From NCBI GenBank assembly GCA_015233495.1, contig JADFXQ010000002.1:34390-98389 (forward strand): a stretch of DNA of 64,000 bases, written 5' to 3'. The notes beneath the pieces were generated by a model that made no database searches, had not been told where the DNA came from, and worked only from the letters and a program-made list of their open reading frames with translations. Positions 28,066 to 50,548 of this stretch are shown piece by piece. A program made the position numbers and the translations under genes. Position 1 is the first letter of the stretch; the number at the start of each line of letters is the position of its first letter. This DNA comes from Candidatus Omnitrophota bacterium. Lineage in GTDB: Bacteria > Omnitrophota > Gorgyraeia > Zapsychrales > Zapsychraceae.

Positions 28066-28072
28066 AATAAGG

Positions 28073-29554: not shown

Positions 29555-29556
29555 CG

Positions 29557-30555: not shown

Positions 30556-30606
30556 GGGGGAAGCGCCGATGAAACTCCAGCCGCGAAACCACGAGCCTAA
30601 AAAAAA

Positions 30607-33127: not shown

Positions 33128-33175
33128 CAGCATTTATTCGTAGATTATTCCGCCCGAATCAGAAAGGCGCAGCAG

Positions 33176-34336: not shown

Positions 34337-34352
34337 AAATAAATGGTGTCAG
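34335..34352. repeat. 18-bp inverted repeat, left copy (gaaaataaatggtgtcag)
   Basis: Exact reverse complement of 37733-37750. Also part of a local palindrome, aatggtg-tcaggc-caccatt. Confidence 0.8.
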
Positions 34353-34465
34353 GCACCATTCGAGAAACAGGCACAAGTCTAAGATATCCGCGTCTGCGTT
34401 GTCGGGGCGCTCCTACTACGGAAATATTGTAAATTTGTTGTGAATCCATTCAAAAAGGAACCTAT

Positions 34466-34984
34466 ATGCGCCGGTTGTATTCTTACGTTTTCCGCATCCT
34501 GATCTGCCTCGGCATTTTTGGATGCTCGTCCACAAAATTTATGTATCAAGAGATCGCGAAGGACAAGGATACCTATAATATGCGCGTCTTCCCGGTGGCC
34601 TTGCCGCAGCTACAGGAAGCCGTAGAAAAAGTCATGCTTGCGAAAAAAATGTCCATTGAATCCGAAGATAAAACCAGTGGGACTATATCGGCTTATCGTA
34701 AATTCAGCCGCGGCTATAAAACGATTGTCGTCGTCTTGCAATCGAAGATTGTGTCCAACAGCGCCGCGGAACAAGAGCTTTTCCTCAACGGCATCCAGAC
34801 CACCGAGCGTAATTACGTCGAAGACAAAACCCGGTTTTTTCTCTGGCTCGTGCCCCTGCCTGGGGGCGGCGGCAAACATGTGACCACCGCGAAAGAAGCG
34901 GATGTGTTTATTGATGATAAAGCCTGGTACGGCGAACTTTTTGACGCGATTCAAAAGGCATTAATTCCGGGCACACAAAAATAA
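34466..34984 (+). CDS. lipoprotein
   Basis: Signal peptide with lipobox LGIFGC. 172 aa. Confidence 0.5.
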   Translation: MRRLYSYVFRILICLGIFGCSSTKFMYQEIAKDKDTYNMRVFPVALPQLQEAVEKVMLAKKMSIESEDKTSGTISAYRKFSRGYKTIVVVLQSKIVSNSAAEQELFLNGIQTTERNYVEDKTRFFLWLVPLPGGGGKHVTTAKEADVFIDDKAWYGELFDAIQKALIPGTQK

Positions 34985-35039
34985 TCAATAACGGGGGAAA
35001 CACAAAGATAATGATCAATTTTTCGTATTTTTTTATTTT

Positions 35040-35200
35040 GCAAAGTCTTAGGTGCGTCCGTTATGCGGCCGCGACAGGAAGACGGTCGTGCTTACTGGGC
35101 ACGACACTTCGTCGCCGCTTCGCTCCGCTCAAAACGCGGCGACTACGGGCGCCCACGAGGGGCGCCCACTACACCATCAATGGTCATCGTTGAGATTCTT
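35040..35200 (+). ncRNA. candidate structured non-coding element (GC-rich, multiple hairpins); strand unknown
   Basis: The only long non-coding stretch in the window. Hairpins: gtcgtgc-ttactgg-gcacgac, gtcgccgc...gcggcgac and gggcgccc-acgag-gggcgccc. The single overlapping ORF (35063-35281) is Arg-rich and non-protein-like. Confidence 0.25.
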
Positions 35201-35206
35201 ATGATA

Positions 35207-35509
35207 GTATTACGGTGTCACACACTTTATTCCATAAGTTATTTGTCTTCAATGAGCATTTCCTTATTTTTTCATAAATAGTCTAAAGGGTTAGGACGAA
35301 GGAGAGAACGTTTTAGTTCGTAAGCATTTGTCTACGGAAAGGCCGTTGGGGGATAATGGTTTTTTAAAAATGCTGTCGGCTCAATTGGGCAAAGATCTAT
35401 TGCCAAAGAAAAAAGGCCCCAAGCCAAAGTCAAAATTTTCGTCGGGATCGATAAAAATGCCCATTGCGAATAAACAACTTACGGAATAAAGTGTGTGTCT
35501 CCGTAATAC
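35207..35509. mobile_element. MITE-like element: ~303 bp bounded by 34-bp imperfect terminal inverted repeats
   Basis: 35207-35240 is the reverse complement of 35476-35509 with 31/34 matches. The interior is AT-rich and non-coding. The flanks are near-identical (tgata / tgatc). Confidence 0.35.
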
Positions 35510-35547
35510 TGATCAATCCCGTCAACCAAACCGGCGAGAAATTGAGG

Positions 35548-35934
35548 AGAATTGTCATGAAATGTTTCAATCATCCGAATGCTGAAGCGGTCGGGGTTTG
35601 CAAAGGCTGTGGCAAAGGATTGTGCCTGGCTTGCGCAAAGGACTCCGAATATGGGCTGTCCTGTGCAGGAAAATGTGAAACGGAACTCAAATTAATGCGG
35701 GATGTGCTGTATTCAAGTGATAAAGCTTATGGGCAATTGAGCCCGATTTATTCGCGGTATACGGCAGTTTTGGGAATGATCGGCGGGATATGTCTTATTC
35801 CCAACATATTTTTGCTGGTGACGGGCAAGAATATGGATTATGCGAGTTTATTGTTTGGGATAGTCATGCTGGTGGCTGCGGTTTGGTATTATAAAATTTC
35901 CAGCAAATTTAAAGTCAAAAATACGAAAAAATAA
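35548..35934 (+). CDS. zinc-ribbon (B-box-like) small membrane protein
   Basis: ATG at 35548 follows GAGGAG. CFNHPNAEAVGVCKGCGKGLCLAC...C...C Cys/His cluster, then two hydrophobic helices. Confidence 0.5.
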   Translation, partial: RIVMKCFNHPNAEAVGVCKGCGKGLCLACAKDSEYGLSCAGKCETELKLMRDVLYSSDKAYGQLSPIYSRYTAVLGMIGGICLIPNIFLLVTGKNMDYASLLFGIVMLVAAVWYYKISSKFKVKNTKK

Positions 35935-36154
35935 ACGGAATGCCTTTCCAGTGAAAAAGAAAATACGGTTTTTTTGATGTTATGGGGGCTTGGCGCTTTG
36001 GTGTCGACGTCTTTGGCTCGGGCGGAGATTACGATTGATATCTCGGACCACTTAAAGCCGGGATTTATGGTGGACCGGACGGATCAGACCACTCAGAAAA
36101 AACGGGGTTTTGAAAAATAAATGTGACAGACACCTTTATTTTCGCGGAGGCAAT

Positions 36155-37147
36155 ATGGAAGGTTTGCGAAATTTTATTATTCGTCTCGGGGCAATTTGGC
36201 TAATCTGGGCAGGGATGTTGATCATTGTCCCTGACTGGGCATTTGCGTATCCGGGATCATTTGCTCCCTCGTCAGGCAAAACTTTGCTTATGATCGGCCA
36301 GGACCGCGATACAATTTCTCAATATGTGCGCGCTACCGGCAACATTCCGGGCGGAACCACGTCGTATACTTCGATTCATAAGTTAGAGGGATTGGATGTG
36401 GCCAATGAATATGGATATGGTGACGGGCCTAAGGACGGGGCCGCTCTTTTAAATAATTATCCTAATTCCGTAATTCAACTCGGCTTCTATATGGTGGATG
36501 AGCTGGCGAACACCATTACCGGGAAATATGATGCTAATTTACGGACATTGGCGCAATGGATTATCAAAGCCAACCGGCCAGTTTATTTGCGCATTGGTTA
36601 TGAATTTGACTTTCCGGTAAATCATTATGACCCGCAAAAATACAAACAGGCTTTCCGCTATGTGGTGGATTTTTTGCGCAAAGAGGGTGTGCGTAATGCG
36701 GCGTATATTTGGCATTCCGAATGTATGCCGCATTCTGGTCAGCAATGGATGGATTGGTATCCGGGCGATGACTATGCAGATTGGTTCGGCGTTTCGCTGT
36801 TTTCTACCCAACAGATCCCGACAGCCGTTGATTTTTTGAAATTAGCCCGAGAGCATCGCAAGCCGTTTATGATATGTGAATCAACGCCCCAGGGTTTGTA
36901 TACTGTTCGCGGAAAAAAAGATTTTTTAGAACATATATTCCGGTTCATCCGCGACCAAAATATTGAAGCTTTCTGTTATATCAATTCCAATTGGGATATC
37001 AAGCCAATGTGGCAAGGCCAGCATTGGGGCGATAGCCGTATCGAACAATATCCCGAGATTAAGGATTTATGGCTAAAAGAAATTACTCAAGGGCGTTATC
37101 TTAAGGCGTCGCCGGATTTGTTTCGCTCGCTCGGTTGGCAGAGATAA
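36155..37147 (+). CDS. secreted glycoside hydrolase, clan GH-A (GH26-like)
   Basis: ATG at 36155 follows GGAGG. Signal peptide (cleavage near AFA|YP). YLRIGYEFD and DWFGVSLF, with KPFMICESTPQG, resemble the GH26 acid/base and nucleophile regions. Confidence 0.5.
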   Translation: MEGLRNFIIRLGAIWLIWAGMLIIVPDWAFAYPGSFAPSSGKTLLMIGQDRDTISQYVRATGNIPGGTTSYTSIHKLEGLDVANEYGYGDGPKDGAALLNNYPNSVIQLGFYMVDELANTITGKYDANLRTLAQWIIKANRPVYLRIGYEFDFPVNHYDPQKYKQAFRYVVDFLRKEGVRNAAYIWHSECMPHSGQQWMDWYPGDDYADWFGVSLFSTQQIPTAVDFLKLAREHRKPFMICESTPQGLYTVRGKKDFLEHIFRFIRDQNIEAFCYINSNWDIKPMWQGQHWGDSRIEQYPEIKDLWLKEITQGRYLKASPDLFRSLGWQR

Positions 37148-37375
37148 GTGTTTATTGCTCGCATATAAATAGACATAGGCGCGGCTGGGAGATAAAAATA
37201 GATTTGTTTAAATTATTGGCAGAAAGTTTATTCAGATCGTTCTTTTATTGAGGTGCGCGTCAGGTTATACCAATATCCCGTTTGGAAGTGGTAGGATGCA
37301 TAATGACCGACAGAGCGTTGTTTTTGGGATTGTCCCATCAAAGGGGATTGCAGCAATAAACCGATCTGTATATCT

Positions 37376-37675
37376 TTGCCGCCGGGAACTTATGAAATGA
37401 CATCATTTCGAACTATAACAATGGGGCCGCGTACAGAATCGGCGCCGGGCATTAAATTTAAGGTCGAGCCAAATTCTGTAGTATATATCGGCACATTAAC
37501 AGGGCAATCCCTGGGTCCGGCTTGGGGGCCGATACAGTATGTATTTAAGGTGGAAGATGAACTTGAAGAAGAGACGCAGGCTCAAGCCGAATCCTGTCCC
37601 GGCGTGAAAGATGGCAAGCCGGTGATTAGTTTGATGGAGGCGCCGTATAATTCGGTCAGGGCCAATGTTTGGTAA
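37376..37675 (+). CDS. hypothetical small protein
   Basis: 99-aa ORF with no recognisable motif. It may be spurious or a gene fragment. Confidence 0.25.
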   Translation: MPPGTYEMTSFRTITMGPRTESAPGIKFKVEPNSVVYIGTLTGQSLGPAWGPIQYVFKVEDELEEETQAQAESCPGVKDGKPVISLMEAPYNSVRANVW

Positions 37676-37732
37676 AATAGGGAGACAGCGCAAAATCGTA
37701 ATAACTTGTTCTAGTAAAAAGAGATCGTGAGA

Positions 37733-37750
37733 TCTGACACCATTTATTTT
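37733..37750. repeat. 18-bp inverted repeat, right copy (ctgacaccatttattttc)
   Basis: Exact reverse complement of 34335-34352. Confidence 0.8.
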
Positions 37751-37811
37751 CCGCAGTCCTAATTATTTCCTTCTTTCCGGATTAGAAGTTTTCCCGTTGA
37801 CTCAAAAGAAA

Positions 37812-37856
37812 ACGCTTTCCCGGAGGGCGCGCAAAGCGTCTTTTTTGCCGTTTTTA
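37812..37856 (+). terminator. terminator-like hairpin with T-run immediately upstream of the giant gene
   Basis: acgcttt(37812-18) / aaagcgt(37833-39) 7-bp stem with a 14-nt GC-rich loop, followed by cTTTTTTgccgTTTTTa. Confidence 0.3.
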
Positions 37857-37873
37857 TCGGGTATACTTTAAGT

Positions 37874-40800
37874 GTGGATACTATTTTTATTATTAGTATT
37901 TATAAACATATCTTGAAACGCTTGGTGGCTTTTGTTGTTTTGTTGTGTTTTTTGCTTTTAAATGTCCGGCCGCTTGCCGCGGGAGGTTGGCCACAGCCGC
38001 CATCCGTGACCATTCTTGATTCTTCGCGCCCTTTTACGCCATTTTTACTTAAAGGCGTCACCATCGATCCGCGCAATCCTTTGCATTTTGATTTTATCTT
38101 TGATCCCGGTCAATCTTCGATGTCCACGAATCATTCGGAAAAAGAAGCGAGCCGCATCGTCAAATATTTTTTGGCGGCTTTGGCTTTGCCGGAAAAAGAC
38201 CGCTGGGTCAATCTTTCTTTGCAAGAGAGCGGCAGGATAATCCCGGAAATTTTTGGTTTGACTGATATGGGACGGGATATGTTGTCGCTGGATTTTGTCT
38301 TAAAGCAGTTGTCTGCCTCTTTGACTCACCCGGAACAAAAATTAGGGGCGGAGTTTTGGCGCCGCGTTTACGCGAAGGTCAAGAAAGAATACGGCACAGA
38401 TGAAGTTCCGGTTGACTCGGTTACCCGGGTATGGATCGTGCCGGCGCAAGCCGTGGTTTATACGAGCGGGCAAAGCGCTTTTGTGGCTAAAAGCAGTCTT
38501 AAGGTATTAGCGGAAGAAGATTATTTGGCGGGGAAACCGCAAGGACTTAAAGCTTCGGAACCAGATAGCCTCAAAGGTAAAAATACCGCAGCGGTGTTCA
38601 CGGATATATTTCGCGCGATTGTAATCCCGGAGATCGAAAAGGAAGTAAACACAGGTGACGCCTTTGCGCCATTACGGCAGATTTATAACGCCCTGGTCCT
38701 CGCTACCTGGTTTAAACAACAGTGCAAAGCCGGGACGTTGGGAAAGGGCTATTTCGGACAAAAGAAGATTAAAGGAATTGATGTCGCAAAAGACCGGTTT
38801 AAAGAAAAAATTTATGAACAGTATACGGAGTCTCTGAAAAAAGGCGTTTATAATTTCATCAGGGAATATAACGATCCTTTGACGGAGGAAACCGTTTCCC
38901 GTCAATATTATTCCGGCGGGATCGAGTTTACGACAGAGGTTGATCGAAAAGTTCAGTTTTTGCCTTTAGAGAAAGAAGTGTTTCTTGCCGTCCTGAGAAA
39001 ATCGTCTCCGGTGTTAGAAGGCGCTTCAATATATATTGATCCGATAACCAAGGAGGAGAAACTACCGCGTCCCAGGATGTCTTCGCCGGTCAAGCCTCCC
39101 GTATTGGACGACAGTTCTCGGCAAGCGTTAGAGGATTTGGGATTGTCTTATAAAGAATTCCAACGATTGACTTTCGCGCAGACCGGATTCGAAGAAGCAT
39201 TGTTTAACGCTTTTCCGGCTTTAAAATTAAATATATTTTCTTTGCGGACGCAGGAACGTTTTTCCCGCGCGGTGCGGTCGCTGACGCGGGAATTGCGTGA
39301 GAATAGCGTAGAGCCAAAAATCGCTTTAGGGTTCGCGATCCGGTTTGCGATTCAACAATTCTATCAGGATATTTTGCCGGAAAATCTTTCATCGGCGGAT
39401 AACCAACGTTGGAATCAGATTGTCTCTCAATATTTTCGCGATTTTCTTCCCTCCCCGGGCCCGCGGATACCGGAGTATGTAAAACGGAAATACAATTTTG
39501 ACGATAACATGAACGGGAGGGTTGCCCGCGCCTTGATATCGCGAACCCCGGTTGTGTTTAAAGCCGCGAAAAACAGCGATGGATTGTTGACAGATGAGCT
39601 GCGACGGCAGGCCGGCGAGGGCAACATTGATTTGAGCGTTGTTTGGGGACATCCTTCCACGGATGAACGGCAGTTGATCGGCGGCCGCGTGCCTAAGGAG
39701 GGTAAAGACGGTTTGGTTTTCGGTTATGGCGTTTTAACGGAGAAAATTGAAGCCGCGCGCAGTGATCCGGGGAAGAAATATGTTGTGCTGATCAAAAATA
39801 TCGAAGCCGTTGATCCGGAAGTCCGCTTGCTTTTGCAAGAAATGCTGCGGATTTCCGAATTGTCCCATCCGGGTTTGGGTCAGGTATATCTTCCCGAGAA
39901 TTTTCAGATTATTTTCACCATGGCGGAAACCGCGAATATCGAAGACGATTCTTTTTACGACCGGGTCAGCGTAAAAACAGTTCCCGCCGATCTAACTTTC
40001 AAGCCGAAAACCCTTCCCGGTGTAACGGCAGGCGTCACGGCGGAGAATTACCGTTCTGTCTTAACCATTAAAGGGTCAGCGGACAATCCGGTTTTGGTTT
40101 TACCGGGGACACAGATCCGTTTGAACCAGGAATTTCGCGGGATCACTACTGAAAATATGTTTTCTATGATTTATGAAAAAACCGGTCTCTTGCTTGATTT
40201 CGATACGGTTCGGATGTTGGTCGCCATGGCGAACGCAGTCAAGTCCGGAGAACCCATTCTGCGGCTAATTGGTCCTACGGGTGTGGGAAAAACATTCACC
40301 AGCCGCGGATTTGCTTTATTGCGGGGCTCGTCTTTTTTCGCGAACCCGGTAAGTCCCGGCACGGAATTCACGGATTTGATCGGCAGTTTTGAGCAACAAG
40401 ACAATCACTTGTTCGCGTTTAACGGTGAGACCACATTTAAGGAGCGATTGGAAAACGGCGGGGTGGTGGCTTTGAGCGAGCTTAACACTTTAGTTGACAA
40501 TAATCAAAAAGCGAGCTTGGCGTGGTGGTTGACCCAGATCAGCCAGACTACCCCGGACGCCGACGGTTATCGGACGATTTATCTTACCGAAGTTCCGGTT
40601 GCGCCCGGACAACCGCGGCCGAGCATCCGGATTCATCCGCAGTCCTTGATTGTTGTTGATGTGAACCCGGCAGTCTATGAAAGCCGCGCCGCTTTTCCGG
40701 ATGTCTTCGAGGAATCCACGCCCGAATTGACTATTGGTTCGTATATTAGCGCTATTGCCGCGGATAGAGCGGCGGATATCCATAAATTATCTCAAACCGC

Positions 40801-43800
40801 CCGGCAATTTTTAAGCCTGGGTGTTCGGATTCAAGGACGGATGATTCCGGGGATTAGTGATCCGGCACGTTTGGAAGTTTTGGCAGAGGCAATAGGGACT
40901 CGGTATTATGAAGTGGTTGCCGCGTATGATCAGCACAAGTTTGGCGGTAAAGATCAATTTCATTTTTCAAATCGAGAACTTAAACGCATAGCGGAGGATG
41001 TTTTATTATGGATGGAGCGCGGCTTGAGTTCGGACGCGGCGCTCGCGAAAGCCTTTACTCATCATTTGGTGGTGCGCTGGAACGCGCAAAATGACCGGGA
41101 TTATGCCGCGAATTTGATACCTGACGCGGAAGTTACGCTGGGTTTACGGGAGTTTGTGGAACATGAAGTTTTCGTTGCTAATCGGCGGGCGCATATACGG
41201 GTTGCGTCAGGGATAGATACTCAAGTCTTGATCGATGAAATTAAAGACGGCAGGGATGATGTTGTGGTTCGCATTATTAACGTGACCCAGGAATTGGACA
41301 GGTTCAAATTGGAAGGCGGCCGTGTGGTGAATGAAGACGGCCGGGGTTACGCATTTGCCGAGGGGTTGATTGGCCGGATGATTGCACAAGCCGAAACAGC
41401 GCCGGATAAAAAATTTCTTTATGTTTTTGAGAATATCCATAATCTGTGGCCGGAAGACGCGGTGGGTTTGAACGAAATTCTTCAGGAAGGGACATTGTCG
41501 GTGCGGGGCAGGGATACCAAGCGTAGTATTCCGGTAAATGCCGGCATAATGTCCATCAGCCGTCAGGACACGGACTGGACCTGGTCGGAAGCGGAGAAAT
41601 CCCGGTATGTGACCTATGTTTATGAACGGGATACTATTGGCGAACAAATTCAAAACCGGCTTAACGATTATTTTCGCGCTAATGGTCTTGAGCCGGCAGT
41701 CGCGATAGCGTTAAGCCGGATGTTTTGGCGTAGGCTCAAGGTGTCTATAGAATATATTCAGTCGAATAAAGCTTATCAGAACCGGGTGAGCGAGCGCTCC
41801 GCGCTTAAATGTATAGAACTATTTATAAAATTGACCGCGGAAAGACAGGAGGCCGGCGGCTTGAATGTGGCGGATTTGATCAATTTGTTTCGAAAGTCTT
41901 GCGATTTGACGTTTGGGATCAGTGTTCCGCGACGTGTTTTACTGGATAACTCACAGAGTCGGGTTGCAGCTGTTTATCAGAATTTATTTACGGTTTTTGG
42001 CGCTCTGCCGTTTGGCGCGCCGTTGAACGCAGTGACATCGCAAAAATCTGGCGGGGCGGAAACCGCGGCGGGCGAAGCTGAAGCCGGTAATGTAAATTTG
42101 AATGGGGAAATCGCGCTAGCGCTCGCTGCAGCCAAATTAGATTTAGAAATGGCGGATGCAGAAGACCGGTCAAGCGCTTTGCAGAAATTGAAAGAGGTTT
42201 TGGAACTGTCTGAGCATACCGGAGATTTGACGGGAGAGCCAACCGCGGCGCAAGATTTAAAAAATCTTGATGTAGTCAGGGCAGTATTGAAACAGAGTTC
42301 GCATAAGTTTCGGGGAAGTGTTACAGGGTTCGACGTTAATGAACACGGCGTAGTAGTTTGGACTAACTTAGATGAGATATGGATACAAAAAAATGATGGT
42401 AAAATCTTAACGACACGATTTCCTGGCATGATCAGAAATGTAAGGATTTCAGCGGATGAACTGGTGTACATTTCGGGTGAAAATACGGTTTGTGTAATCA
42501 AACAAGATGACCTGAATCATTTGATATCTTATCCCACATATTTAACCACTGATAATGTTGAAGCGATTCAACATTTGGTTATTAGTAATGGAGTAGTTGC
42601 CGCGGCTACCGCAAAAGGGGGGCTTTTATTGTGGGAAAAGGAAGGGAATCAATGGTTAGAAAAGATTAGATGGAAGGATGGTTTTCCAATAGAGCAATTA
42701 TTGTTATCAGGTGAAACTTTAGCGGTGAGGATGCGTAATGGTACTTGTCGCATTTGGCAGAAAAATGGCGGAGCTTGGGAACAGCAATCCGGATTGGTTT
42801 TGGGCCATTCGTCGGATAACCGCTTTAAGAACCGAATTTGGCAAATCGTTGCAAAGGTCAGGAGAATATTTTTGGGGGGAGATAAAGGATATATTCCTGG
42901 AGTGAGTCAGATAGCTTTGTCTGAGACTGAATTCGCGATTTTTACTCATTCCGGAGAAATCATTATGTGGGCAAAAGAAGTCGGGCAATGGCGAGCAGAG
43001 CCGGTTTTACGAACTTCGATTGAACCGGGTGTTTATAGGGTGGGGCATTTTGTTTTGAAAGACAGCGCTTTGGTTTATTGCAGTTTTAATGGGGAAGTAC
43101 GTTTATGGGGAAAACATGGCGACAAATGGATCAAAGAACCATTGATAAAAGACGATACTTTTGGAACGAATGTCCGGTTTTTTGATTTTAATAATGGGGT
43201 CTTGGCTATTGGCGGAAACGTGGGCGCCCTGAAGACTTCATCAGCCGAACCAAAAGGGGGCATCCGCGTCTGGGAACGGGAATTTAGTCTATGGGGACCT
43301 AAATGGCAGCTTCGAATCAAGGAAGATAATTTAGATGGTTTGGCGGATTTGAAGGTATCGAAAGGCGCGGTTCGTGTTCTTGCTGTGACCTTGAATGGGC
43401 AAATATTGAGTTGGGTTAATCAAATTATTAAATGGCAAATCGATCCAGTGAGAACGATAAAGCATTCGGGCCAGATTTTTGGGGCGCAAACGCACTCGGG
43501 TAATTTGCTGGTCGTGACTACCGACGCGGTCGATGTTTATCAACCTGGCATAGGGATAGTTTATGGGACAGCGGTAATGCAGTTTAACGGCGCTGAAGAT
43601 GTGCCTGTGAGTGATTTAGCGGATGAGGTAGTCCGAATGAGTGTAAGAGAACCGCCGCGTCCGGAAATTTTGGCACAGCAAGAAGCGCGGGCAAAACAGG
43701 AGATTATTTTGGGAGACGAAAAAAAGCGAGCGCCGGCTTTGCTTAAATTGGGGGAAACGTTGACTGCGGCGGAACAGGCTGACCATTTGGAAAAGGAAGC

Positions 43801-46800
43801 TGAGGTTGAATCGGCAACATTAGCGGATTTGGATGTGGTGGTTGGGTTGATGAGCGAATCGGGCCACAAGTTCGCGGGCAAAATCAAAGGATTCGAGTCG
43901 AATGAATATGGCGTTTTAGCGTGGAGCGATCAGAAGGAAATTTGGTTGAAGGACGCGAAGGGGGATATTATCGAGTATCAATTTGATCAAGAAATCAGAT
44001 ACGCCAGAATCGCTCGGGATCGATTAGTTGTCGCGGATATTGACAGAATTTATATATGGGAGAAAGATAATGGGGTTTGGCAGCGACGAGCTTTTGTTTC
44101 AGATTTGTTGCCGGGTTATACTAAGGGGCTGGCGATTTCGGATGACGGCGTAGTCGCGGTTTGCAACAGCTACGGACAAATTTATTTATTTAAAAAACAA
44201 AATGGGCAATGGAAAAGCGCGAATAATATAAAAGTATTTTTTGTTATTGGAATGATTTTTGATCGTTTAGAAAAATTTTTGCTTAAAACAAACGTGGGTA
44301 TGGTTTTATGCCGTTTTATTGAGAAATGGGATTTCAGAATGCGCAGTAACCGATCATTTGACAAAATATATTTCCGGGGCGAATTATTGGTGGTAGAAGA
44401 AGTGGTGGATTATGATGGAAAACAGTATTTTGGCGTTTTTGAAAGAAAAGACGGCCGCTGGGCGCGGGTTTTTAAAAGAAAATTCGATGGACCGATTAAA
44501 AATTTTGTTGTTTTGAAAAATGTCTTAACTGTGGTTGATAAGCAAGGTGTGGTTTTTTCAGTTAGCAAATCTGAAGGTAAATGGGTTATGAGAGAGAGGA
44601 GGATAGGATCCGAACAGGTTTTATACATATCTGAGGATGTGTGGTTATCGGCGATAGGTGAAGTGCAGTTGGTATATAAAGATGGGGATCAGCCTGAGCA
44701 ATATCTTTTTTTACCTGTTCGATTCGCGGAGGTTTCTTATGTGGCAAGAGACAAAGATTTTTTAGCTATAGGCACTAAATCCGGATCGATTTATTTATAT
44801 GAGAAAAAAGATTATTTGCCGATAGGAAATACAAGTCGGATGTCTGCATATCTGGAACCGCAAAACAAGTGGAGATTGGCAGGACAGGCAGATAACTTGG
44901 GAACAATTAAGGGATTAAACATTAAAGATGGAAAAGTAATTGTGGCAACGGAAGACGGAAGTGTTAAATGGTTTGGGGTTGGCCGCGGGATGGTTCATGA
45001 AGGAATAGTGCGCAATCTGAATGGCGAGGGCCAGATGGATCAGCGGAGTTTGAGTAAAAAAGTTACCCGGTTAAAGGTGAAATATGAAAGACATAATCAA
45101 ACCGGATCTCCGGAAGATCAAAAGTTTGAGCCGCTGGTTGGCTATGGGAACCGGCCGTTTTATTTTGGCGCGGATCGAGACGGAAATGTATATCTGAATT
45201 TTGACAATCGTTGGTATCGGACGCGGCACACTTTGACGCAGCCCTTTGATCACGCTCTGTTGAGCGGGCCCCGCACAGCGCCCGTCAATGGTCGGCCGAC
45301 GGAGATTTTTCCCGTCCGGTTAGACGCGGTCAAGCATCCGGACAGCCGGCTGGAGCGGTCTTTCACCAAAAAAGATTTTTTGATGACTACCGGGGATTTG
45401 ACGGAAGAAGAAAAAGCGGTTTTACTGAATTTTGAGATATCCCGTCAGGTTGATTTGGAAGGTCCTTCCGGAGCCGGGAAAACGAGCATTGGGAAAGAGA
45501 TCGCGCTTTTGCTCGGCCTGCCGGTTTTTGTGTTGCAGATGCACGGTCAGCGGGATTTATCGGATTTGATCGGTGCCTATCGCGAGGATGAACACGGCCG
45601 GTATTATCTTTCCATGAAACCCAAACCAGTAGCTAAGGATATTTTGGAAGCTGCGGTCGCGCCGGCATTGGTGAGTCGGTTATTGGAAAAAGGGGTTATT
45701 CGCGTTGATGACAAGGATCCAGAGGTTTACTACTGGGGGTATGGGATTTATTCTTTGGTTGATTTGGAAGAGCGTTTGGACGCTTTGGGCGGCATACTCG
45801 GCCAACCGGACAAAAAGGCGCTGCGTGCCTTGGTGCATTATCGTTTGCCGCTTTTGGAGTTTTTGACGTGGGGCGGGATATATATCGTGGATGAAGGCGC
45901 GATCGGGGAACAGGGTCAGGCTTTGATCAACTGGTTTAGCCGGATTGTGAACGGTGATTCCGAAATCAGTATTGATGATTTCACTGGACTCTCAATTCGG
46001 TTTAAGGTGCATACGGATTTTCATTTGATTATCACTAACAATTCTCCGGAAGACACGGCCGGCCGGGAGTTTTTGAAAAGCGAAATCGCGGCTAATATCG
46101 GGTTTATTTATGTCCCGGAAGATGATTCCCCGGACACTATTGAAGGTTTGTTGGAACATTTTTTACAAGATGAATTAGCCGGGACAGATGTCCGGGGAGT
46201 GAAAAGCGCTCTGCGTAAATTGTATTTGGATATCAAAGCGGCAGTGGGAACCAGCATCGGGACAGATAAAAAAGAGCGGTATTATATTTCCAAACGGGAA
46301 ATCCGCCGGGTGGCAGCCCGGCTATTGTTTGAATACAAAAAAGATCCGGAACATTTTGATTTTACTTATAGTTTTTATAAGGCTTTGCGGATTGTGTTTG
46401 AAGCCGCGTTTTCGCATGAACAAGAGAGACAATTCGTGATGGATAAAATTGTCACTCATTTGAAAGAGACATTTCCGGAACGGGCGCAAGCGATTGATCA
46501 ATTTAAAGCCAAGCTCGAGGCGGAAATTAACAATCGTTTTGCTTTTGCTTCAACTGAAAATGAGAAATGGGTTTTATGGGTGGCAGATGAACTTTTAAAC
46601 CAGGATGAGCCGTTGTTATTGATCGACGAACGCGGGGCCAGGACCAGAGCGATGTTAAGGCGATTGCAAGAAAACCGGGGCGCGGTATTCGATCTGGTCG
46701 ACGCGGTTCCGAGTCATACCAGTTTCGAACTTTTAGGAGCGATTCTGCCGGAATTTTCGGATAAGGGGATTGCCAAACCCGGGAGCAGGATGCGTTTTGT

Positions 46801-49800
46801 GAAAGGCCGGCTCATTGAACATCTGTTGACCAAAGAAGAAATGGAGCAGGCCGAGAGCCAAGGCGGAAAAAGTCAAGAGGTCATTGTCTGGATCAGGAAT
46901 ATCGATCAATGGAACGAAGATATCCGCAGTAGTCTCAACGGTCTTTTAGAAAACGGATATATTGACATTGAAACCAGCCGGGGTGAAACGATCCGGTATT
47001 ATAAACCGCGTCACGTGCGATTTATCGCCGGGATCAATGCCCAGAGCGGCGAGGATTTTTCCAGCGCGTTTTTCAACCGCTGGGTGAAAGTCGGTGTCCT
47101 GGCAGAACCGCGGCCGGATCAAAATGTTGACAAGGGAGAATCGGATTTTCAAAAGGTGTTGAGCGATGTTTATGAAATGGATTCCCGCGAGGCCTATTTA
47201 TTCGCGCGTTTGTTTTTAGAGACGTCCCGCCGGGAAGCTCAGAGACAATGGAGCGTTCAGGAGAGTTATGATTTAACTCCCGAGACATTTTACCTGATTG
47301 CCGCGGCGGTGCGGTTGGCGAAACAACAAAGTCCGCAGTGGCAAGCCATTTTGGCCGCGTTTGAACGGCAGAATTATGATCCGCGCCGGGAATCGCCGAC
47401 TAACGCGGCGCAACGCGATCTGGAGGCCGAGTATCGTCGTTTGTCTAACCGGATATTGACCCAGGAAATCGCCCGTTTGTTTTTACCGCGGTTTCGAACC
47501 GCTACTTCCGCTGATACCGGGGACCGCAAGCTGGTGGAAGATAGTATCCGGGCCGTTTTTAACCTTCAGGGGCCGATTACGCTGGATACGACAGATATTG
47601 TTTCACCCGATTTGTCAGCGGTCCCGGACAAGATCCGGCTGTATTACACGACAAAAATCCGGGAATATTTGAGCGCTCTACAGCGGGCGTCGCAGATGAA
47701 TCGCGGTATTGATATGTTGGGCGAATCAGGCGCCGCGAAAACCACTTTGGCCGAACATTTGGCTCACCGCACGGGGAGAAAGTTTTACAAATATCAGTCG
47801 CACGCGAAAAGTGAGGTGACAGATCTGACGATCGAGCTTAGTCAGACGGAAGACGGCGTCATTCAGAAGCGGTACAAGGAATTTTATGCTTGGCTGAAAA
47901 ATGGGAATGCGGTGATTGATTTTGACGAAGCCAACGCGGCGCCGCATATTTTATGGGCGCTGGAAGCGGTCCTGAATGGAGAGAGCGTTATTTATCCGGC
48001 TTTTCCGGGTGAGAAACCCTTTAAGATCGGTGATAATATCACGATTGTTTTTACTCGTAACCCCCTGCGTTATGCCGGCCGGCAACAGATTGAAAAACGG
48101 ATCACAGATAAAATGGTTGTCTTATGGATTGATTTGCCTGATCCGGAGGAAAAAGCGAAAATTGTTCAGACGTTTTACGGGGTTTGGGCCTTAGAGGAAG
48201 AAACGGCAGTCGCGCCGACTGAGGAACTACACCCGAAAGAGAAGGCCAATATCCCACATGAAAGCGATCTGCCGGTTTCGGACACTATTGATATGGACAC
48301 GGATATGAAGGAAGGCCGGGAGATACCGACTATGCAAGATGAAAAAAATTTAACCGAACCACCGGCGGTTTCCACTGCCCCTAAACCCGCGGCGCGCGGG
48401 GTATTCACGCCGGAACTTTATCCGCGGACTCGTCTGGGGGTCTATAATCGATTCGATGCGGCCACAGAAAAATTTTGGCTTGAACGAGGCGAGTATAAAT
48501 CCGTGCCAGTGACTCCGAAGACCGGGAGGGAAAGAACGATCATTGAGGAGACAAGAGATATTTTTCAGGGACAATATATTTTGCGTCTGGGACATGCCTT
48601 CAGCCGCTTGCCGTCGGCTGGAGCGGATATGGAGTTTATTGATTTGAGTGTGAGGGATACCGCGGGTAACTTGCTGGACATTCCGGTCGAGATTACGCGT
48701 GACAGCGCGGACAATTATTATATTCGGCAAAAAGACGCAGATGCTCCGGCAGCTGAGGTTGAAATCCGTTACACAGTCACAGTAGCGAAAGAATATTTCG
48801 GGAAGATTATTCCCAATAACCCGGACATTGGACCGGATATCCGCGAGACCATGACTGTGATGGGTCTCACCCCCAATAACCCGGACATTGGACCGGATAT
48901 CCGCGAGGCCATGACTGTGATGGGTCTCACCGGAAAGGAACGGGATTTCCGGGAGGTTTTATATAAAATGATCGCGTTTACCCGGGATTTTAAATTAGAA
49001 AAAATAACCGCGGAAGGACCAAGTAAATTTTTACGGATTTTAAGATCGGGTGCGGGTGTTTGCCGGCATGGGGCGCAGATATTTGCCGCAACGGCTTGGG
49101 CGATCGGAATGCCGGCCAGGTTAGTCGTTTCCGATATTCATGAATTCGTGGAAGTGGAGGTTCCGGGAATCGGCTGGATGCAAATTGACCTCGGCGGGGG
49201 CGGCGATCCCGCCAACATGGATTTGAGTCCGCTGGCGAATGAGCGGCATAATCCGGCGTATGCCAATGATTTTCCCGAGCCGGAAAATTATAAACAAAAA
49301 AAGGAGTTGTATCGGGACCTATATGAGAAGGCGATGAAGGATCAGGGGATTAAACCGCCGGTATCTCCCCGGCCGAATCGCTCCGGCGAAACGGGCGCGG
49401 CGGATAACGACGCGGCGATAGGCGGTCATTTTGATCCGAAACTGGAAGGGGAGCGCATTGACGCGGCTTTGGCAAATTTGATCCGCGAACAGGGGGCGAC
49501 GCTTAACCAGGATATTGAAAATTCGTTTCAGAGCGGCACGGTCATCGCCGAGCAAGTATTCGAACGGATGAAGCGGGCTATTGAAGCGGGGATCCGTTAT
49601 AAACGGGAAATGAAGAAAAATGGGTTGGAGATTGATCCCGTGGCCTGGATGCTGCGCTTACCGAATCCGTTTGTCAAGCGGACACGGGTTACGAAATTGC
49701 AGACCACCGCAGTGGCGGTTTTGTTTGACGCGAGCGGCAGTATTAGCGTTATCCGTGAGCCGGTCACTTACGCGATCGCCGTTACCGGAAAGAATTTTCA

Positions 49801-50548
49801 GCAATTGAACGATACGGCGCCGCAGCATTTTCATTATGATCTTTCGACTTATACCCATCTTGAACCCGAGACGATTGATAGCATGAGTCAGCGGATGAGC
49901 GCGGAAGATATGGATAAACAATTGATTAAATTAGCGAACTTGATCGGGAACGGCGGCGGCAATGATTTGCAACGGGCAATGTCTTTTAAGCTGACGAATG
50001 AACAAGGTACAGGTTTTCTTGATGCCCGCGAGGCGCGAACCGCGAAAGTGAAATATATGATCGTGTTTACCGACGGAGCTGACGCGGCCATTCGGCAGAA
50101 CGGAAATGATTATGAGCCCCAGGATTCTTTTAAGGAAGTTTTACGAAGATATCGTGACGCCGGGATTGACTTGATTGCCATCGGGATCGGCGCAGGCTCA
50201 AAATATGTGCGGGCGTTCAAAGGCGAGGGACAGCATTTTGTCCAGATTGACGATAAGCATCCCGAAAACATCGCGGAAGCAATCGCGGCTATCGCGGAGC
50301 TGAAATCCAGGGGAATGGGTATTTTGCCGGACGGCGACATCACGCCTTTGATGCAATTCTCGCAAAGCAGTCCGATCAGCGATGCAGACGCGAATAAAGT
50401 CGGCGGTATTGATTTGACCGCGGACTGGGTGACTATTGAAACGCATACCGCGGGCCGCGAAATTCAAATTCCTCGGCTTCCTGAAAATTTTGACTGGTCG
50501 CGAGTGCAGGGATTAAACCCGCTGATTCTGGAATTTTATTCGTATTAA
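37874..50548 (+). CDS. giant secreted multi-AAA+ ATPase / beta-propeller / transglutaminase-like / vWA(MIDAS) protein, 4224 aa
   Basis: A single uninterrupted 12,675-nt ORF. GTG start with no obvious SD; an in-frame TTG at 37913 is an alternative. N-terminal signal peptide (KRLVAFVVLLCFLLLNVRPLAA). Walker A motifs GPTGVGKT (40271), GPSGAGKT (45461) and GESGAAKT (47720), with matching AAA_5-type Walker B regions. Duplicated W-rich repeat module at 42295-45420. TGase core GVCRHG...H...D at 49049-49189. vWA MIDAS motif DASGS at ~49730. Confidence 0.85.
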   Translation: MDTIFIISIYKHILKRLVAFVVLLCFLLLNVRPLAAGGWPQPPSVTILDSSRPFTPFLLKGVTIDPRNPLHFDFIFDPGQSSMSTNHSEKEASRIVKYFLAALALPEKDRWVNLSLQESGRIIPEIFGLTDMGRDMLSLDFVLKQLSASLTHPEQKLGAEFWRRVYAKVKKEYGTDEVPVDSVTRVWIVPAQAVVYTSGQSAFVAKSSLKVLAEEDYLAGKPQGLKASEPDSLKGKNTAAVFTDIFRAIVIPEIEKEVNTGDAFAPLRQIYNALVLATWFKQQCKAGTLGKGYFGQKKIKGIDVAKDRFKEKIYEQYTESLKKGVYNFIREYNDPLTEETVSRQYYSGGIEFTTEVDRKVQFLPLEKEVFLAVLRKSSPVLEGASIYIDPITKEEKLPRPRMSSPVKPPVLDDSSRQALEDLGLSYKEFQRLTFAQTGFEEALFNAFPALKLNIFSLRTQERFSRAVRSLTRELRENSVEPKIALGFAIRFAIQQFYQDILPENLSSADNQRWNQIVSQYFRDFLPSPGPRIPEYVKRKYNFDDNMNGRVARALISRTPVVFKAAKNSDGLLTDELRRQAGEGNIDLSVVWGHPSTDERQLIGGRVPKEGKDGLVFGYGVLTEKIEAARSDPGKKYVVLIKNIEAVDPEVRLLLQEMLRISELSHPGLGQVYLPENFQIIFTMAETANIEDDSFYDRVSVKTVPADLTFKPKTLPGVTAGVTAENYRSVLTIKGSADNPVLVLPGTQIRLNQEFRGITTENMFSMIYEKTGLLLDFDTVRMLVAMANAVKSGEPILRLIGPTGVGKTFTSRGFALLRGSSFFANPVSPGTEFTDLIGSFEQQDNHLFAFNGETTFKERLENGGVVALSELNTLVDNNQKASLAWWLTQISQTTPDADGYRTIYLTEVPVAPGQPRPSIRIHPQSLIVVDVNPAVYESRAAFPDVFEESTPELTIGSYISAIAADRAADIHKLSQTARQFLSLGVRIQGRMIPGISDPARLEVLAEAIGTRYYEVVAAYDQHKFGGKDQFHFSNRELKRIAEDVLLWMERGLSSDAALAKAFTHHLVVRWNAQNDRDYAANLIPDAEVTLGLREFVEHEVFVANRRAHIRVASGIDTQVLIDEIKDGRDDVVVRIINVTQELDRFKLEGGRVVNEDGRGYAFAEGLIGRMIAQAETAPDKKFLYVFENIHNLWPEDAVGLNEILQEGTLSVRGRDTKRSIPVNAGIMSISRQDTDWTWSEAEKSRYVTYVYERDTIGEQIQNRLNDYFRANGLEPAVAIALSRMFWRRLKVSIEYIQSNKAYQNRVSERSALKCIELFIKLTAERQEAGGLNVADLINLFRKSCDLTFGISVPRRVLLDNSQSRVAAVYQNLFTVFGALPFGAPLNAVTSQKSGGAETAAGEAEAGNVNLNGEIALALAAAKLDLEMADAEDRSSALQKLKEVLELSEHTGDLTGEPTAAQDLKNLDVVRAVLKQSSHKFRGSVTGFDVNEHGVVVWTNLDEIWIQKNDGKILTTRFPGMIRNVRISADELVYISGENTVCVIKQDDLNHLISYPTYLTTDNVEAIQHLVISNGVVAAATAKGGLLLWEKEGNQWLEKIRWKDGFPIEQLLLSGETLAVRMRNGTCRIWQKNGGAWEQQSGLVLGHSSDNRFKNRIWQIVAKVRRIFLGGDKGYIPGVSQIALSETEFAIFTHSGEIIMWAKEVGQWRAEPVLRTSIEPGVYRVGHFVLKDSALVYCSFNGEVRLWGKHGDKWIKEPLIKDDTFGTNVRFFDFNNGVLAIGGNVGALKTSSAEPKGGIRVWEREFSLWGPKWQLRIKEDNLDGLADLKVSKGAVRVLAVTLNGQILSWVNQIIKWQIDPVRTIKHSGQIFGAQTHSGNLLVVTTDAVDVYQPGIGIVYGTAVMQFNGAEDVPVSDLADEVVRMSVREPPRPEILAQQEARAKQEIILGDEKKRAPALLKLGETLTAAEQADHLEKEAEVESATLADLDVVVGLMSESGHKFAGKIKGFESNEYGVLAWSDQKEIWLKDAKGDIIEYQFDQEIRYARIARDRLVVADIDRIYIWEKDNGVWQRRAFVSDLLPGYTKGLAISDDGVVAVCNSYGQIYLFKKQNGQWKSANNIKVFFVIGMIFDRLEKFLLKTNVGMVLCRFIEKWDFRMRSNRSFDKIYFRGELLVVEEVVDYDGKQYFGVFERKDGRWARVFKRKFDGPIKNFVVLKNVLTVVDKQGVVFSVSKSEGKWVMRERRIGSEQVLYISEDVWLSAIGEVQLVYKDGDQPEQYLFLPVRFAEVSYVARDKDFLAIGTKSGSIYLYEKKDYLPIGNTSRMSAYLEPQNKWRLAGQADNLGTIKGLNIKDGKVIVATEDGSVKWFGVGRGMVHEGIVRNLNGEGQMDQRSLSKKVTRLKVKYERHNQTGSPEDQKFEPLVGYGNRPFYFGADRDGNVYLNFDNRWYRTRHTLTQPFDHALLSGPRTAPVNGRPTEIFPVRLDAVKHPDSRLERSFTKKDFLMTTGDLTEEEKAVLLNFEISRQVDLEGPSGAGKTSIGKEIALLLGLPVFVLQMHGQRDLSDLIGAYREDEHGRYYLSMKPKPVAKDILEAAVAPALVSRLLEKGVIRVDDKDPEVYYWGYGIYSLVDLEERLDALGGILGQPDKKALRALVHYRLPLLEFLTWGGIYIVDEGAIGEQGQALINWFSRIVNGDSEISIDDFTGLSIRFKVHTDFHLIITNNSPEDTAGREFLKSEIAANIGFIYVPEDDSPDTIEGLLEHFLQDELAGTDVRGVKSALRKLYLDIKAAVGTSIGTDKKERYYISKREIRRVAARLLFEYKKDPEHFDFTYSFYKALRIVFEAAFSHEQERQFVMDKIVTHLKETFPERAQAIDQFKAKLEAEINNRFAFASTENEKWVLWVADELLNQDEPLLLIDERGARTRAMLRRLQENRGAVFDLVDAVPSHTSFELLGAILPEFSDKGIAKPGSRMRFVKGRLIEHLLTKEEMEQAESQGGKSQEVIVWIRNIDQWNEDIRSSLNGLLENGYIDIETSRGETIRYYKPRHVRFIAGINAQSGEDFSSAFFNRWVKVGVLAEPRPDQNVDKGESDFQKVLSDVYEMDSREAYLFARLFLETSRREAQRQWSVQESYDLTPETFYLIAAAVRLAKQQSPQWQAILAAFERQNYDPRRESPTNAAQRDLEAEYRRLSNRILTQEIARLFLPRFRTATSADTGDRKLVEDSIRAVFNLQGPITLDTTDIVSPDLSAVPDKIRLYYTTKIREYLSALQRASQMNRGIDMLGESGAAKTTLAEHLAHRTGRKFYKYQSHAKSEVTDLTIELSQTEDGVIQKRYKEFYAWLKNGNAVIDFDEANAAPHILWALEAVLNGESVIYPAFPGEKPFKIGDNITIVFTRNPLRYAGRQQIEKRITDKMVVLWIDLPDPEEKAKIVQTFYGVWALEEETAVAPTEELHPKEKANIPHESDLPVSDTIDMDTDMKEGREIPTMQDEKNLTEPPAVSTAPKPAARGVFTPELYPRTRLGVYNRFDAATEKFWLERGEYKSVPVTPKTGRERTIIEETRDIFQGQYILRLGHAFSRLPSAGADMEFIDLSVRDTAGNLLDIPVEITRDSADNYYIRQKDADAPAAEVEIRYTVTVAKEYFGKIIPNNPDIGPDIRETMTVMGLTPNNPDIGPDIREAMTVMGLTGKERDFREVLYKMIAFTRDFKLEKITAEGPSKFLRILRSGAGVCRHGAQIFAATAWAIGMPARLVVSDIHEFVEVEVPGIGWMQIDLGGGGDPANMDLSPLANERHNPAYANDFPEPENYKQKKELYRDLYEKAMKDQGIKPPVSPRPNRSGETGAADNDAAIGGHFDPKLEGERIDAALANLIREQGATLNQDIENSFQSGTVIAEQVFERMKRAIEAGIRYKREMKKNGLEIDPVAWMLRLPNPFVKRTRVTKLQTTAVAVLFDASGSISVIREPVTYAIAVTGKNFQQLNDTAPQHFHYDLSTYTHLEPETIDSMSQRMSAEDMDKQLIKLANLIGNGGGNDLQRAMSFKLTNEQGTGFLDAREARTAKVKYMIVFTDGADAAIRQNGNDYEPQDSFKEVLRRYRDAGIDLIAIGIGAGSKYVRAFKGEGQHFVQIDDKHPENIAEAIAAIAELKSRGMGILPDGDITPLMQFSQSSPISDADANKVGGIDLTADWVTIETHTAGREIQIPRLPENFDWSRVQGLNPLILEFYSY
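42295..45420 (+). repeat. internal tandem duplication of a ~520-aa Trp-rich beta-propeller-like module (protein level)
   Basis: Module 1 starts HKFRGSVTGFDVNEHGVVVWTNLDEIWIQKNDGKIL. Module 2 starts HKFAGKIKGFESNEYGVLAWSDQKEIWLKDAKGDII. Both contain recurring phi-W-x-K-x-G-x-W repeats. Confidence 0.6.
48811..48930 (+). repeat. perfect 2 x 60-bp in-frame tandem duplication inside the giant gene
   Basis: 48811-48870 and 48871-48930 differ at only 2 positions. They encode PNNPDIGPDIRE(T/A)MTVMGLT twice. Confidence 0.9.

Follow-up and report, generated by a model that had tools for sequence, protein, structure and literature searches.

A giant Omnitrophota protein that carries six alternately degenerate and canonical AAA_5-like modules, beta-propellers, a transglutaminase-like domain and a vWA domain on one chain

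Architecture of the protein

A gene on the forward strand of contig JADFXQ010000002.1, from the Candidatus Omnitrophota bacterium assembly GCA_015233495.1, encodes a 4224-amino acid (aa) protein in which a signal peptide is followed on a single chain by six AAA_5-like modules, two beta-propellers, a transglutaminase-like (TGL) domain and a vWA (von Willebrand factor A) domain. The gene occupies 37874..50548 of the 64,000-nucleotide stretch analysed here (contig positions 34,390 to 98,389; hereafter the window), and the coordinates of its parts are collected in Table 1. We are inclined to read the protein as a pseudo-hexamer formed by one polypeptide, an AAA+ machine of the AAA_5 class, that of MoxR, midasin and dynein, in which a MoxR/vWA/TGL system has been fused into one chain. 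Our confidence in the architecture is high, and that in the mechanism proposed below is moderate. The open reading frame (ORF) begins with GTG and runs through 4224 codons without interruption, as an initial annotation made from the sequence had reported for the whole 12.7 kb. The product is 100% identical to the protein cluster P0002, GenBank MBF0531693.1, "AAA family ATPase" [Candidatus Omnitrophica bacterium]; the giant is already deposited, under a generic name only.

Pfam profiles were run on the whole protein and on ten tiles, with cutoffs of 22 bits for AAA_5, 23 for Transglut_core and 23.8 for VWA. On the whole protein AAA_5 matched four stretches (E = 5e-27), and it matched the tiles at aa 520-780 (E = 8e-4), 760-1080 (E = 2e-4), 2480-2880 (E = 2e-4), 2860-3240 (E = 0.06) and 3220-3480 (E = 1e-9), with AAA6 as the strongest match. 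Two of these five modules score above the cutoff and two just below it (19.9-21.6 bits), while AAA5 is weak at 13.8 bits. The tile at aa 1060-1420, which covers AAA3, had no Pfam match; a hidden Markov model (HMM) of AAA3 built from the family described below gives AAA1 61 bits and AAA5 20 bits. The three plus three modules that had been proposed at first are therefore supported by five AAA_5 matches together with the homology of AAA3 to AAA1 and AAA5.

When the module HMMs are compared with one another, odd modules (1, 3 and 5) score 18-61 bits among themselves and even modules (2, 4 and 6) 25-59 bits, whereas odd against even gives about 0 bits, which indicates that the protein is a triplicated two-module unit, one module dead and one live. 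Residue conservation, which we read across 22-25 divergent family members, follows the same alternation. Canonical P-loops occur at three sites only (aa 800 GPTGVGKT, aa 2530 GPSGAGKT and aa 3283 GESGAAKT), and in AAA2, AAA4 and AAA6 the Walker A lysine, the Walker B acidic pair and the sensor-1 asparagine are invariant, the pair being D-E in AAA4 and AAA6 and S-E in AAA2, where the aspartate is replaced by serine family-wide. In AAA1, AAA3 and AAA5 the P-loop and Walker B are lost, and an 'xRF' arginine is invariant (R697 in 22 of 22 members, R1244 in 22 of 22 and R3069 in 25 of 25). The same arginine is substituted in AAA2, which has lost its Arg finger, and in AAA4; in AAA6 it is kept in 13 of 25. 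We take this position to be that of the Arg finger of the Mg-chelatase subunit BchI ('LLDRF'). In dynein-type rings and in BchI, module i+1 contributes the finger that completes the nucleotide site of module i. The pattern thus predicts three composite ATP sites, AAA2 with AAA3, AAA4 with AAA5 and AAA6 with AAA1, because the live even modules hold Walker A, Walker B and sensor 1 and the dead odd modules hold the Arg finger. As the finger of AAA1 would be of use only if it touches the ATP site of AAA6, we infer that the six modules most likely close into one ring. The Arg-finger pattern and the movable position of the insert between modules, which lies elsewhere or is missing in some relatives, suggest that the "two triads" of the initial annotation are halves of one (dead-live)x3 pseudo-hexamer and not separate units.

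The structural evidence is in keeping with such a half-ring. An AF2 model of aa 2424-3455, which covers AAA4-6, reached a predicted local distance difference test (pLDDT) value of 82.4 and a predicted template modelling (pTM) score of 0.81. In a Foldseek search with it, the top 50 matches were all dynein motor domains, aligned over ~1030-1130 columns (TMq 0.55-0.58, E = 5e-28), and the predicted AAA4-6 superposes on dynein and midasin half-rings. Single modules are structurally closest to NorQ and CbbQ. AAA4 also carries a ~65-aa, mostly helical extension in its helix-2-insert region (aa ~2587-2650, window 45632-45823), which is common to the relatives L001, L002 and P0004 and is not present in P0001 or most Elusimicrobiota members. 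The extension recalls, speculatively, the helical extension of the Rea1 AAA2 helix-2 insert, which plugs the ring (PMC7973254).

Between the triads lie the two ~520-aa Trp-rich repeats noted at first, which are true paralogues (aa 1421-1844 against 1941-2364: 26% identity over ~450 aa, E = 2e-23). They are divergent propellers: Pfam gave only weak beta-propeller matches for aa 1400-2500, and canonical WD40 propellers occupy the same slot in homologues. The acidic D/E-rich stretch behind AAA6 is present, only ~60 aa long (aa 3441-3500, 17 of 60 residues D/E, net charge -12). Both C-terminal domains of the initial annotation were recovered by Pfam. Transglut_core matches aa ~3710-3772 at 27.9 bits and contains the expected Cys-His-Asp core (C3730/H3756/D3772), which is kept in eight of ten subfamily members, with Asp replaced by Glu in two; the member P0013 is divergent. 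The TGL subfamily motifs are GVCRH, D[VI]HAF.E and DLGGGGDP, and the window protein has no transmembrane (TM) segments around this domain. VWA matches aa 3947-4109 at 31.9 bits, with the DxSxS metal ion-dependent adhesion site (MIDAS) at D3952-x-S-x-S3956 and D4067; the corresponding motif, D[FA]SGS ... GGT ... FTDGxD, is conserved in the subfamily.

A family of giant bacterial proteins

An exhaustive phmmer search with AAA4-6 as the query against 1.84 billion representative proteins returned 666 matches at E<=1e-3, of which 50 had E<=1e-30. The top ~60 are proteins of 3,000-7,600 aa, and among the top 150 the bacterial giants come first, followed by proteins with midasin-like length and match pattern. 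About 50 clusters have the architecture of the window protein and make up a rare, unnamed family (P0004-P0037, L001-L002), with sources in Omnitrophota, Elusimicrobiota (including 'Ca. Liberimonas magnetica') and metagenome-assembled genomes (MAGs) labelled Planctomycetia. Databases call its members 'AAA family ATPase', 'MoxR-like ATPase/WD40 repeat protein' or 'hypothetical'. Three loci came from a scan that took one genome per GTDB species: a complete homologue of 4331 aa in a Planctomycetia-labelled MAG (L002), a second paralogue whose >4408 aa take up an entire 13-kb contig of the same MAG (L001), and a fragment in another MAG. A search with the C-terminal third of the protein found one fragment, P0001. 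The protein is thus not one of a kind; the suggestion that its family is undescribed agrees with the literature we searched, in which we found no description of such a bacterial family and no paper naming a bacterial or prokaryotic midasin or dynein. Papers on giant genes of Omnitrophota treat ORFs >20 kb and do not describe the family.

Members share the order signal peptide, variable N-region, preA1, AAA1-2-3, insert, preA4, AAA4-5-6, postA6, TGL, spacer and vWA, where preA1, preA4 and postA6 are conserved segments next to the modules after which they are named. When segments of the window protein were mapped on the family, each module best matched its positional counterpart in nearly every member. 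The window protein has this collinear order (of which TGL is a variable part), the module-specific orthology and the dead/live alternation. The large insert lies between AAA3 and AAA4 in its own subfamily and between AAA4 and AAA5 in a second one (P0025, P0026, P0028, P0029, P0033-37); P0023 has no large insert, and its AAA1-6 are contiguous. The number of propeller units per member varies from two to at least five. Several divergent paralogues can occur in one genome, as in the Omnitrophota MAG GCA_015231405.1 (L007, L008), which holds at least four (P0023, P0025, P0029 and P0049), two of them five genes apart on one contig.

Comparison with midasin, dynein and MoxR systems

Searched against PDB, the family profile of AAA4-6 found yeast Rea1 (E = 6.5e-48, five stretches) and S. 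pombe Mdn1 (E = 4e-34) well ahead of dynein (E = 9e-7), NorQ (E = 1.5e-4) and McrB (E = 7e-4); with a single sequence as the query, PDB yielded no more than marginal NorQ and integrin matches. The phmmer matches ranked below the bacterial giants are mostly 4,800-5,500 aa long with 5-7 matched stretches, a midasin-like pattern, and all three whose source names were looked up (P0065, P0080 and P0083) bear the name midasin. By sequence, eukaryotic midasin is the nearest characterised relative outside the bacterial family. Midasin (Rea1/Mdn1) is a eukaryotic AAA+ protein that remodels pre-60S particles and binds the ubiquitin-like (UBL) domains of Rsa4 and Ytm1; to our knowledge, bacteria have no UBL partners of this type.

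The midasin-like layout that had been proposed holds for six tandem AAA_5 modules on one chain, an acidic linker and a MIDAS-type vWA domain, and fails in several other respects. The run of modules is split 3+3 by ~1,000 aa of propellers, and only three modules (AAA2, AAA4 and AAA6) have P-loops, against six in the midasins sampled. HMM score matrices in both directions showed no diagonal between AAA1-6 and the midasin modules M1-M6, and thus no positional orthology: even modules of the window protein match M2-M5 indiscriminately, M3 best. Midasin modules also split into odd (M1, M3, M5) and even (M2, M4) classes, so that an (A-B)x3 origin is a theme common to both, although the classes cannot be mapped onto each other. 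In place of the ~1,700-aa helical linker of midasin there are ~250 aa between AAA6 and TGL, and the D/E-rich region, several hundred residues in midasin, is ten-fold shorter. The vWA family profile matched no midasin chain in PDB, its best match being an integrin I-domain at a non-significant E of 0.085, and we therefore dropped the claim of a midasin-type MIDAS. The TGL domain, apparently generic vWA, signal peptide, bacterial host and paralogues set the protein further apart. Judged from these comparisons, it is a parallel, related architecture and not a midasin orthologue. From the dynein heavy-chain motor it differs in its weak sequence similarity (E = 9e-7, above) and in missing the stalk with its microtubule-binding domain (MTBD), the buttress and the N-terminal mechanical linker; dynein itself has no vWA domain.

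The nearest functional parallel lies in prokaryotes. MoxR and its vWA partners are normally encoded by separate genes (PMC3495828, PMC7159879), as had been assumed, and MoxR, vWA and a YebA-like TGL peptidase form a very common three-gene prokaryotic operon (Zhang & Aravind 2012, PMC3495828), so that the TGL domain, first regarded as an unusual addition, is a widespread companion. For the operon it has been proposed that vWA recruits, MoxR unfolds and TGL cleaves, near the membrane (PMC3495828). Its three activities, an AAA_5-class ATPase of the helix-2-insert clade, a MIDAS vWA and a Cys-His-Asp TGL, all meet in the window protein; both would be membrane-proximal, with the same logic of unfolding or holding and cleaving. 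The operon consists of three small genes, with a homo-hexameric MoxR and a TGL inside an 8-TM protein, whereas the window protein joins six modules that differ from one another to propellers on a single chain and lacks TM segments beside TGL. The NorQ-NorD, CbbQ-CbbO, GvpN-type MoxR and BchI/BchD systems are homo- or hetero-oligomers of single-module subunits without a six-fold fusion and, unlike the window protein, have neither TGL nor propellers.

Other prokaryotic giants with several AAA_5 modules lie outside the family. P0046 (MFC1753351.1, labelled Thermoproteota archaeon) is 4005 aa long; its six P-loops alternate between GETAxGKT and GPTASGKT, modules 4 and 5 are separated by an insert, the C-terminus carries a DxSxS motif, and there is no signal peptide. 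On midasin module HMMs its modules reach 99-148 bits and so stand far nearer midasin than do those of the window family. P0046 is resembled by P0059 and, at ~7,590 aa, its relative P0286; the representative P0078 is a 3,157-aa fragment.

Proposed mechanism and localization

A fused MoxR/vWA/TGL system is the most economical reading of the protein, because all three operon activities sit on one chain. A (dead, live) module pair would have been triplicated to give six modules that close into one ring, with the even live modules contributing Walker A, Walker B and sensor 1 and the odd dead modules the Arg finger. As a substrate hook, the vWA domain may use its metal site to seize a client protein by an acidic residue. 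Driven by ATP turnover, the ring would then pull or remodel this client, which the Cys-His-Asp domain would process while held, by cleavage or cross-linking. The two WD40-like propellers at the AAA3/AAA4 junction could serve as a platform for partners or substrate, and the signal peptide and N-terminal domain would hold it at the envelope. What computation shows is which domains and motifs the protein has, its place in the family, its affinity to midasin in sequence and the half-ring model; that the ring closes, how events are ordered, what the substrate is and in which compartment the protein works are inferred.

Several points weigh against this reading. The closed ring extends beyond what the structural model spans, which is the AAA4-6 triad, and Walker B of AAA2 is S-E instead of D-E. 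The MIDAS threonine position is Asn (N4030) in the window protein, as in two relatives, and for the TGL domain peptidase activity, transglutaminase activity or mere binding are all conceivable. Genomic context, described below, yields no candidate substrate. A conserved canonical Sec signal peptide leaves an ATP-driven mechanism without an obvious supply of ATP.

The signal peptide proposed by the initial annotation has all the parts expected of one. The N-terminus (MDTIFIISIYKHILKRLVAFVVLLCFLLLNVRPLAA, followed by GG) combines a positively charged n-region with a hydrophobic core of 13 residues and an AxA-like site, with an alternative TTG start at aa 14 that would give MKRLVAFVVLLCFLLLNVRPLAA, and the same kind of N-terminus is found in most full-length homologues. 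As there is no further hydrophobic segment in the window protein, the whole ATPase would, at face value, be exported. This conflicts with the strictly conserved ATP-hydrolysis motifs, as we know of no ATP in the periplasm of diderms. The Omnitrophota-specific N-terminal domain (N-domain) is not confined to the giants: a profile search found it in at least 134 "hypothetical proteins" of Omnitrophota, 350-700 aa in length and several per MAG. In nearly all of these the N-terminus is a Sec signal peptide, with an AxA-Q site, and the N-domain motifs 'LP.PG..V.LS..F.P.LLKG' and 'FWVNLSPYE..RIIP' follow; Response_reg, Sigma70_r4 and TPR are rare passengers. Neither its sequence nor its predicted fold has a match in Pfam or PDB, and its appearance is that of an export or anchoring module peculiar to the phylum.

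Some relatives (P0006, P0008, P0009, P0013 and L002) carry TM clusters that the window protein does not have: before preA1, as two or four helices in the inter-triad insert, and as two or three after vWA, where the cluster of P0013 bears a CPBP/Abi-like EExxFR motif ('EEPVFR'). These clusters hint at a membrane-embedded arrangement with a cytoplasmic ring. A single topology derived from them was considered and dropped, as positive-inside reasoning gave contradictory answers.

Alternative explanations

If the signal peptide is taken literally, the protein might be an exported surface or periplasmic adhesin and cross-linker: vWA and the propellers would attach to a ligand of the surface or of prey, the TGL core would cross-link envelope or glycan-associated proteins, and the AAA ring would be a scaffold or a user of extracellular nucleotide. 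This is close to the surface or periplasmic mechano-enzyme suggested in the initial annotation, and we consider it unlikely. The predator Bdellovibrio uses a MIDAS-family adhesin, as far as can be taken from a citation in PMC12428579; vWA, TGase and WD40 domains are frequent in extracellular adhesion; the signal peptide is canonical and kept across the family; the N-domain is that of the many signal-peptide-bearing Omnitrophota proteins above; and the window gene sits in a glycan locus between enzymes of the glycosyltransferase C (GT-C) type. That synteny, however, is missing in five other members, and the even-numbered TM helices in the inter-triad insert of relatives fit a cytoplasmic ring. 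Invariant Walker A, Walker B, sensor 1 and trans Arg fingers are expected only with real ATP hydrolysis, which the periplasm, lacking ATP so far as we know, would not sustain.

That difficulty would disappear if the protein were a secreted giant effector, delivered into a prey or host cell whose ATP would drive the remodelling or cleavage of a target there. A signal peptide, the divergent paralogues within one genome and the variation in inserts and propeller number, typical of conflict proteins, would suit such a role, as would the predatory or parasitic traits and giant ORFs of Omnitrophota (PMC10066038). We nevertheless find it doubtful: the protein has no recognisable translocation or pore-forming module, the contexts examined show no secretion-system linkage, Elusimicrobiota and Planctomycetia-labelled MAGs have family members too, and PADLOC gives no match to known conflict systems.

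Less probable than either is a fused form of the beta-propeller type of MoxR-vWA ternary conflict system, acting as an intracellular switch triggered by invaders. Such systems combine MoxR, vWA and a beta-propeller, have membrane-proximal components, are described from planctomycetes, verrucomicrobia and also bacteroidetes (Kaur et al. 2020, PMC7159879), with PVC-group bacteria among the hosts, and can have TGL peptidases as effectors (PMC7159879); the paralogy and variability of the window family would also fit. Their signature is not found here, since the propellers are placed at the AAA3/AAA4 junction, the P-loops (GPTGVGKT, GPSGAGKT and GESGAAKT) differ and everything is in a single gene, whereas the MoxR of those systems is a single-module protein and their third component is separate. 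PADLOC again reported P-loop-level noise only.

A true bacterial midasin orthologue acting in ribosome assembly is very improbable and already largely refuted: midasin is the top characterised relative and shares six modules and a C-terminal MIDAS-type vWA, yet the missing positional orthology, alternating dead modules in place of six P-loops, missing ~1,700-aa linker, 60-residue acidic stretch, vWA whose profile finds nothing specifically midasin-like, signal peptide, sporadic distribution and multiple paralogues all oppose it. Hardly credible at all is an artefact, a chimeric or frameshift-masked ORF, which could appeal to the metagenome-assembled source, to a near-perfect 60-bp duplication and to the lack of a second assembly of this exact gene, and which is contradicted by 12.7 kb without stop codons and by collinear full-length homologues of 3,600-6,900 aa in independent NCBI, ENA, JGI and Logan assemblies, P0007 (4251 aa) alone having been recovered on six contigs. 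Exact-match look-ups of a neighbouring window gene and of P0002, which is the same sequence, were both empty, and hence no second assembly of the locus was found. The duplication (48812-48931, two in-frame tandem copies of 60 bp, 98% match, just upstream of the TGL core) repeats the 20 aa PNNPDIGPDIRE[T/A]MTVMGLT, is not present in the homologue P0001, and could be a recent event or an assembly artefact.

Implications

Dynein, midasin and RNF213 are the textbook single-polypeptide AAA+ rings. A bacterial single-chain ring of six alternately dead and live modules, with vWA, TGL, propellers and a signal peptide, would be new, while its components and their functional coupling are already known. 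As a prokaryotic family with trans Arg fingers on dead modules, it would offer a comparator for the origin and working of such rings and a concrete data set for testing the source of the midasin/dynein ring. The accepted view is that six-fold fusion was an early eukaryotic innovation from single-module MoxR ATPases (Zhang & Aravind 2012, PMC3495828). A tentative and rather improbable alternative is that single-chain six-AAA_5 rings with a MIDAS end are not a eukaryotic invention, that they exist in several prokaryotic lineages (the Omnitrophota/Elusimicrobiota family and P0046), and that they share with midasin and dynein a multi-module ancestor of at least two modules, triplicated. If this is true, the dynein/midasin ring would have originated in prokaryotes, and bacterial models amenable to experiment would be at hand.

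With the fusion, the MoxR-vWA-TGL operon, itself poorly understood, becomes one object of defined stoichiometry that could lend itself to expression and imaging. A signal peptide ahead of an evidently hydrolysis-competent ATPase poses a real puzzle of compartment, with an envelope machine, a prey-directed effector or an unrecognised role as possible answers, and a ring truly exported and working outside the cytoplasm may be a second oddity of the family. The host phylum, Omnitrophota, consists of uncultured, probably predatory nanobacteria.

Genomic context and minor features

The flanks of the gene are related to glycans, as had been noted at first: the window encodes Wzy_C, a hexapeptide acyltransferase, two PMT_2 GT-C proteins, a GH26-like protein, GT2, WecG and Bac_transf, and the giant gene is convergent with a GT-C gene. 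Five homologues sit in other surroundings. L002 (415-16567) has ddl, ftsQ and an ftsA-like gene immediately upstream, P0007 follows two subtilisin genes, P0012 lies between nos-accessory-like/radical-SAM and lipoate genes, P0025 comes after dap and nad genes, and P0023 adjoins a gene for a YifB/ComM-like ATPase of the Mg-chelatase family; nothing is common to these five contexts. Homologues were thus found in other MAGs without synteny, and because all five contexts differ, the glycan neighbourhood is not evidence of function, and the surface role drawn from it fails. The gene behaves as a self-contained unit, and the absence of conserved neighbours is as expected if all partners are fused. 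The position of L002 is the slot usually held by ftsZ in the dcw cluster. The stretch of glycan genes upstream of the window gene (28001-38000) has a G+C content of 0.41-0.45 against ~0.50-0.53 elsewhere, which suggests an island.

Table 1. Positions of the gene and of the segments of its product in the window.
Feature	Residues (aa)	Window coordinates	Strand	Characteristics	Basis
Whole gene, single-chain six-AAA/propeller/TGL/vWA protein	1-4224	37874..50548	+	4224 aa	MBF0531693.1
Sec-type signal peptide or signal anchor	1-36	37874..37981	+	conserved in most full-length members	sequence reading
Omnitrophota-specific N-terminal domain	37-417	37982..39124	+		family mapping, profile searches
preA1	418-545	39125..39508	+	helical conserved segment ahead of AAA1	family-wide conservation
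AAA1	546-770	39509..40183	+	degenerate Walker A/B; invariant Arg-finger motif FYDR (R697)	
AAA2	771-1075	40184..41098	+	GPTGVGKT (K806), Walker B S868-E869, sensor-1 N931	
AAA3	1076-1390	41099..42043	+	degenerate nucleotide site; invariant R1244	homology to AAA1/AAA5
Propeller module 1	1421-1940	42134..43693	+	helical lead-in and divergent WD40-like beta-propeller	
Propeller module 2	1941-2404	43694..45085	+		26% identical to module 1
preA4	2405-2500	45086..45373	+	small conserved beta-rich segment before AAA4, YGxKPFYF..G.VYLNF...TRH	
AAA4	2501-2880	45374..46513	+	GPSGAGKT (K2536), Walker B D2673-E2674, sensor-1 N2723	
AAA5	2881-3240	46514..47593	+	degenerate site ('GAR', 'RNID'); invariant R3069	
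AAA6	3241-3440	47594..48193	+	GESGAAKT (K3289), Walker B D3351-E3352, sensor-1 N3396, R3409	
Short acidic linker	3441-3500	48194..48373	+		composition
postA6	3501-3690	48374..48943	+	conserved region ahead of TGL core; holds the 48812-48931 duplication	
TGL cysteine peptidase/transglutaminase core	3691-3800	48944..49273	+	C3730-H3756-D3772	Pfam, motif
Conserved TGL-vWA spacer	3801-3935	49274..49678	+		family mapping
vWA	3936-4165	49679..50368	+	MIDAS D3952-A-S-G-S3956 ... N4030 (Thr position) ... D4067	
C-terminal tail	4166-4224	50369..50548	+	conserved GxLPDGDIT, then stop codon	

Promoter and terminator scans at both ends of the gene gave nothing beyond shuffled expectation. A 7-bp hairpin with a T-run was seen by eye ~30 nt 5' of the start, from which we draw no claim. 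The GC skew of the propeller-coding part (window 42001-46000) is unusually high, at ~0.30 against ~0.13.

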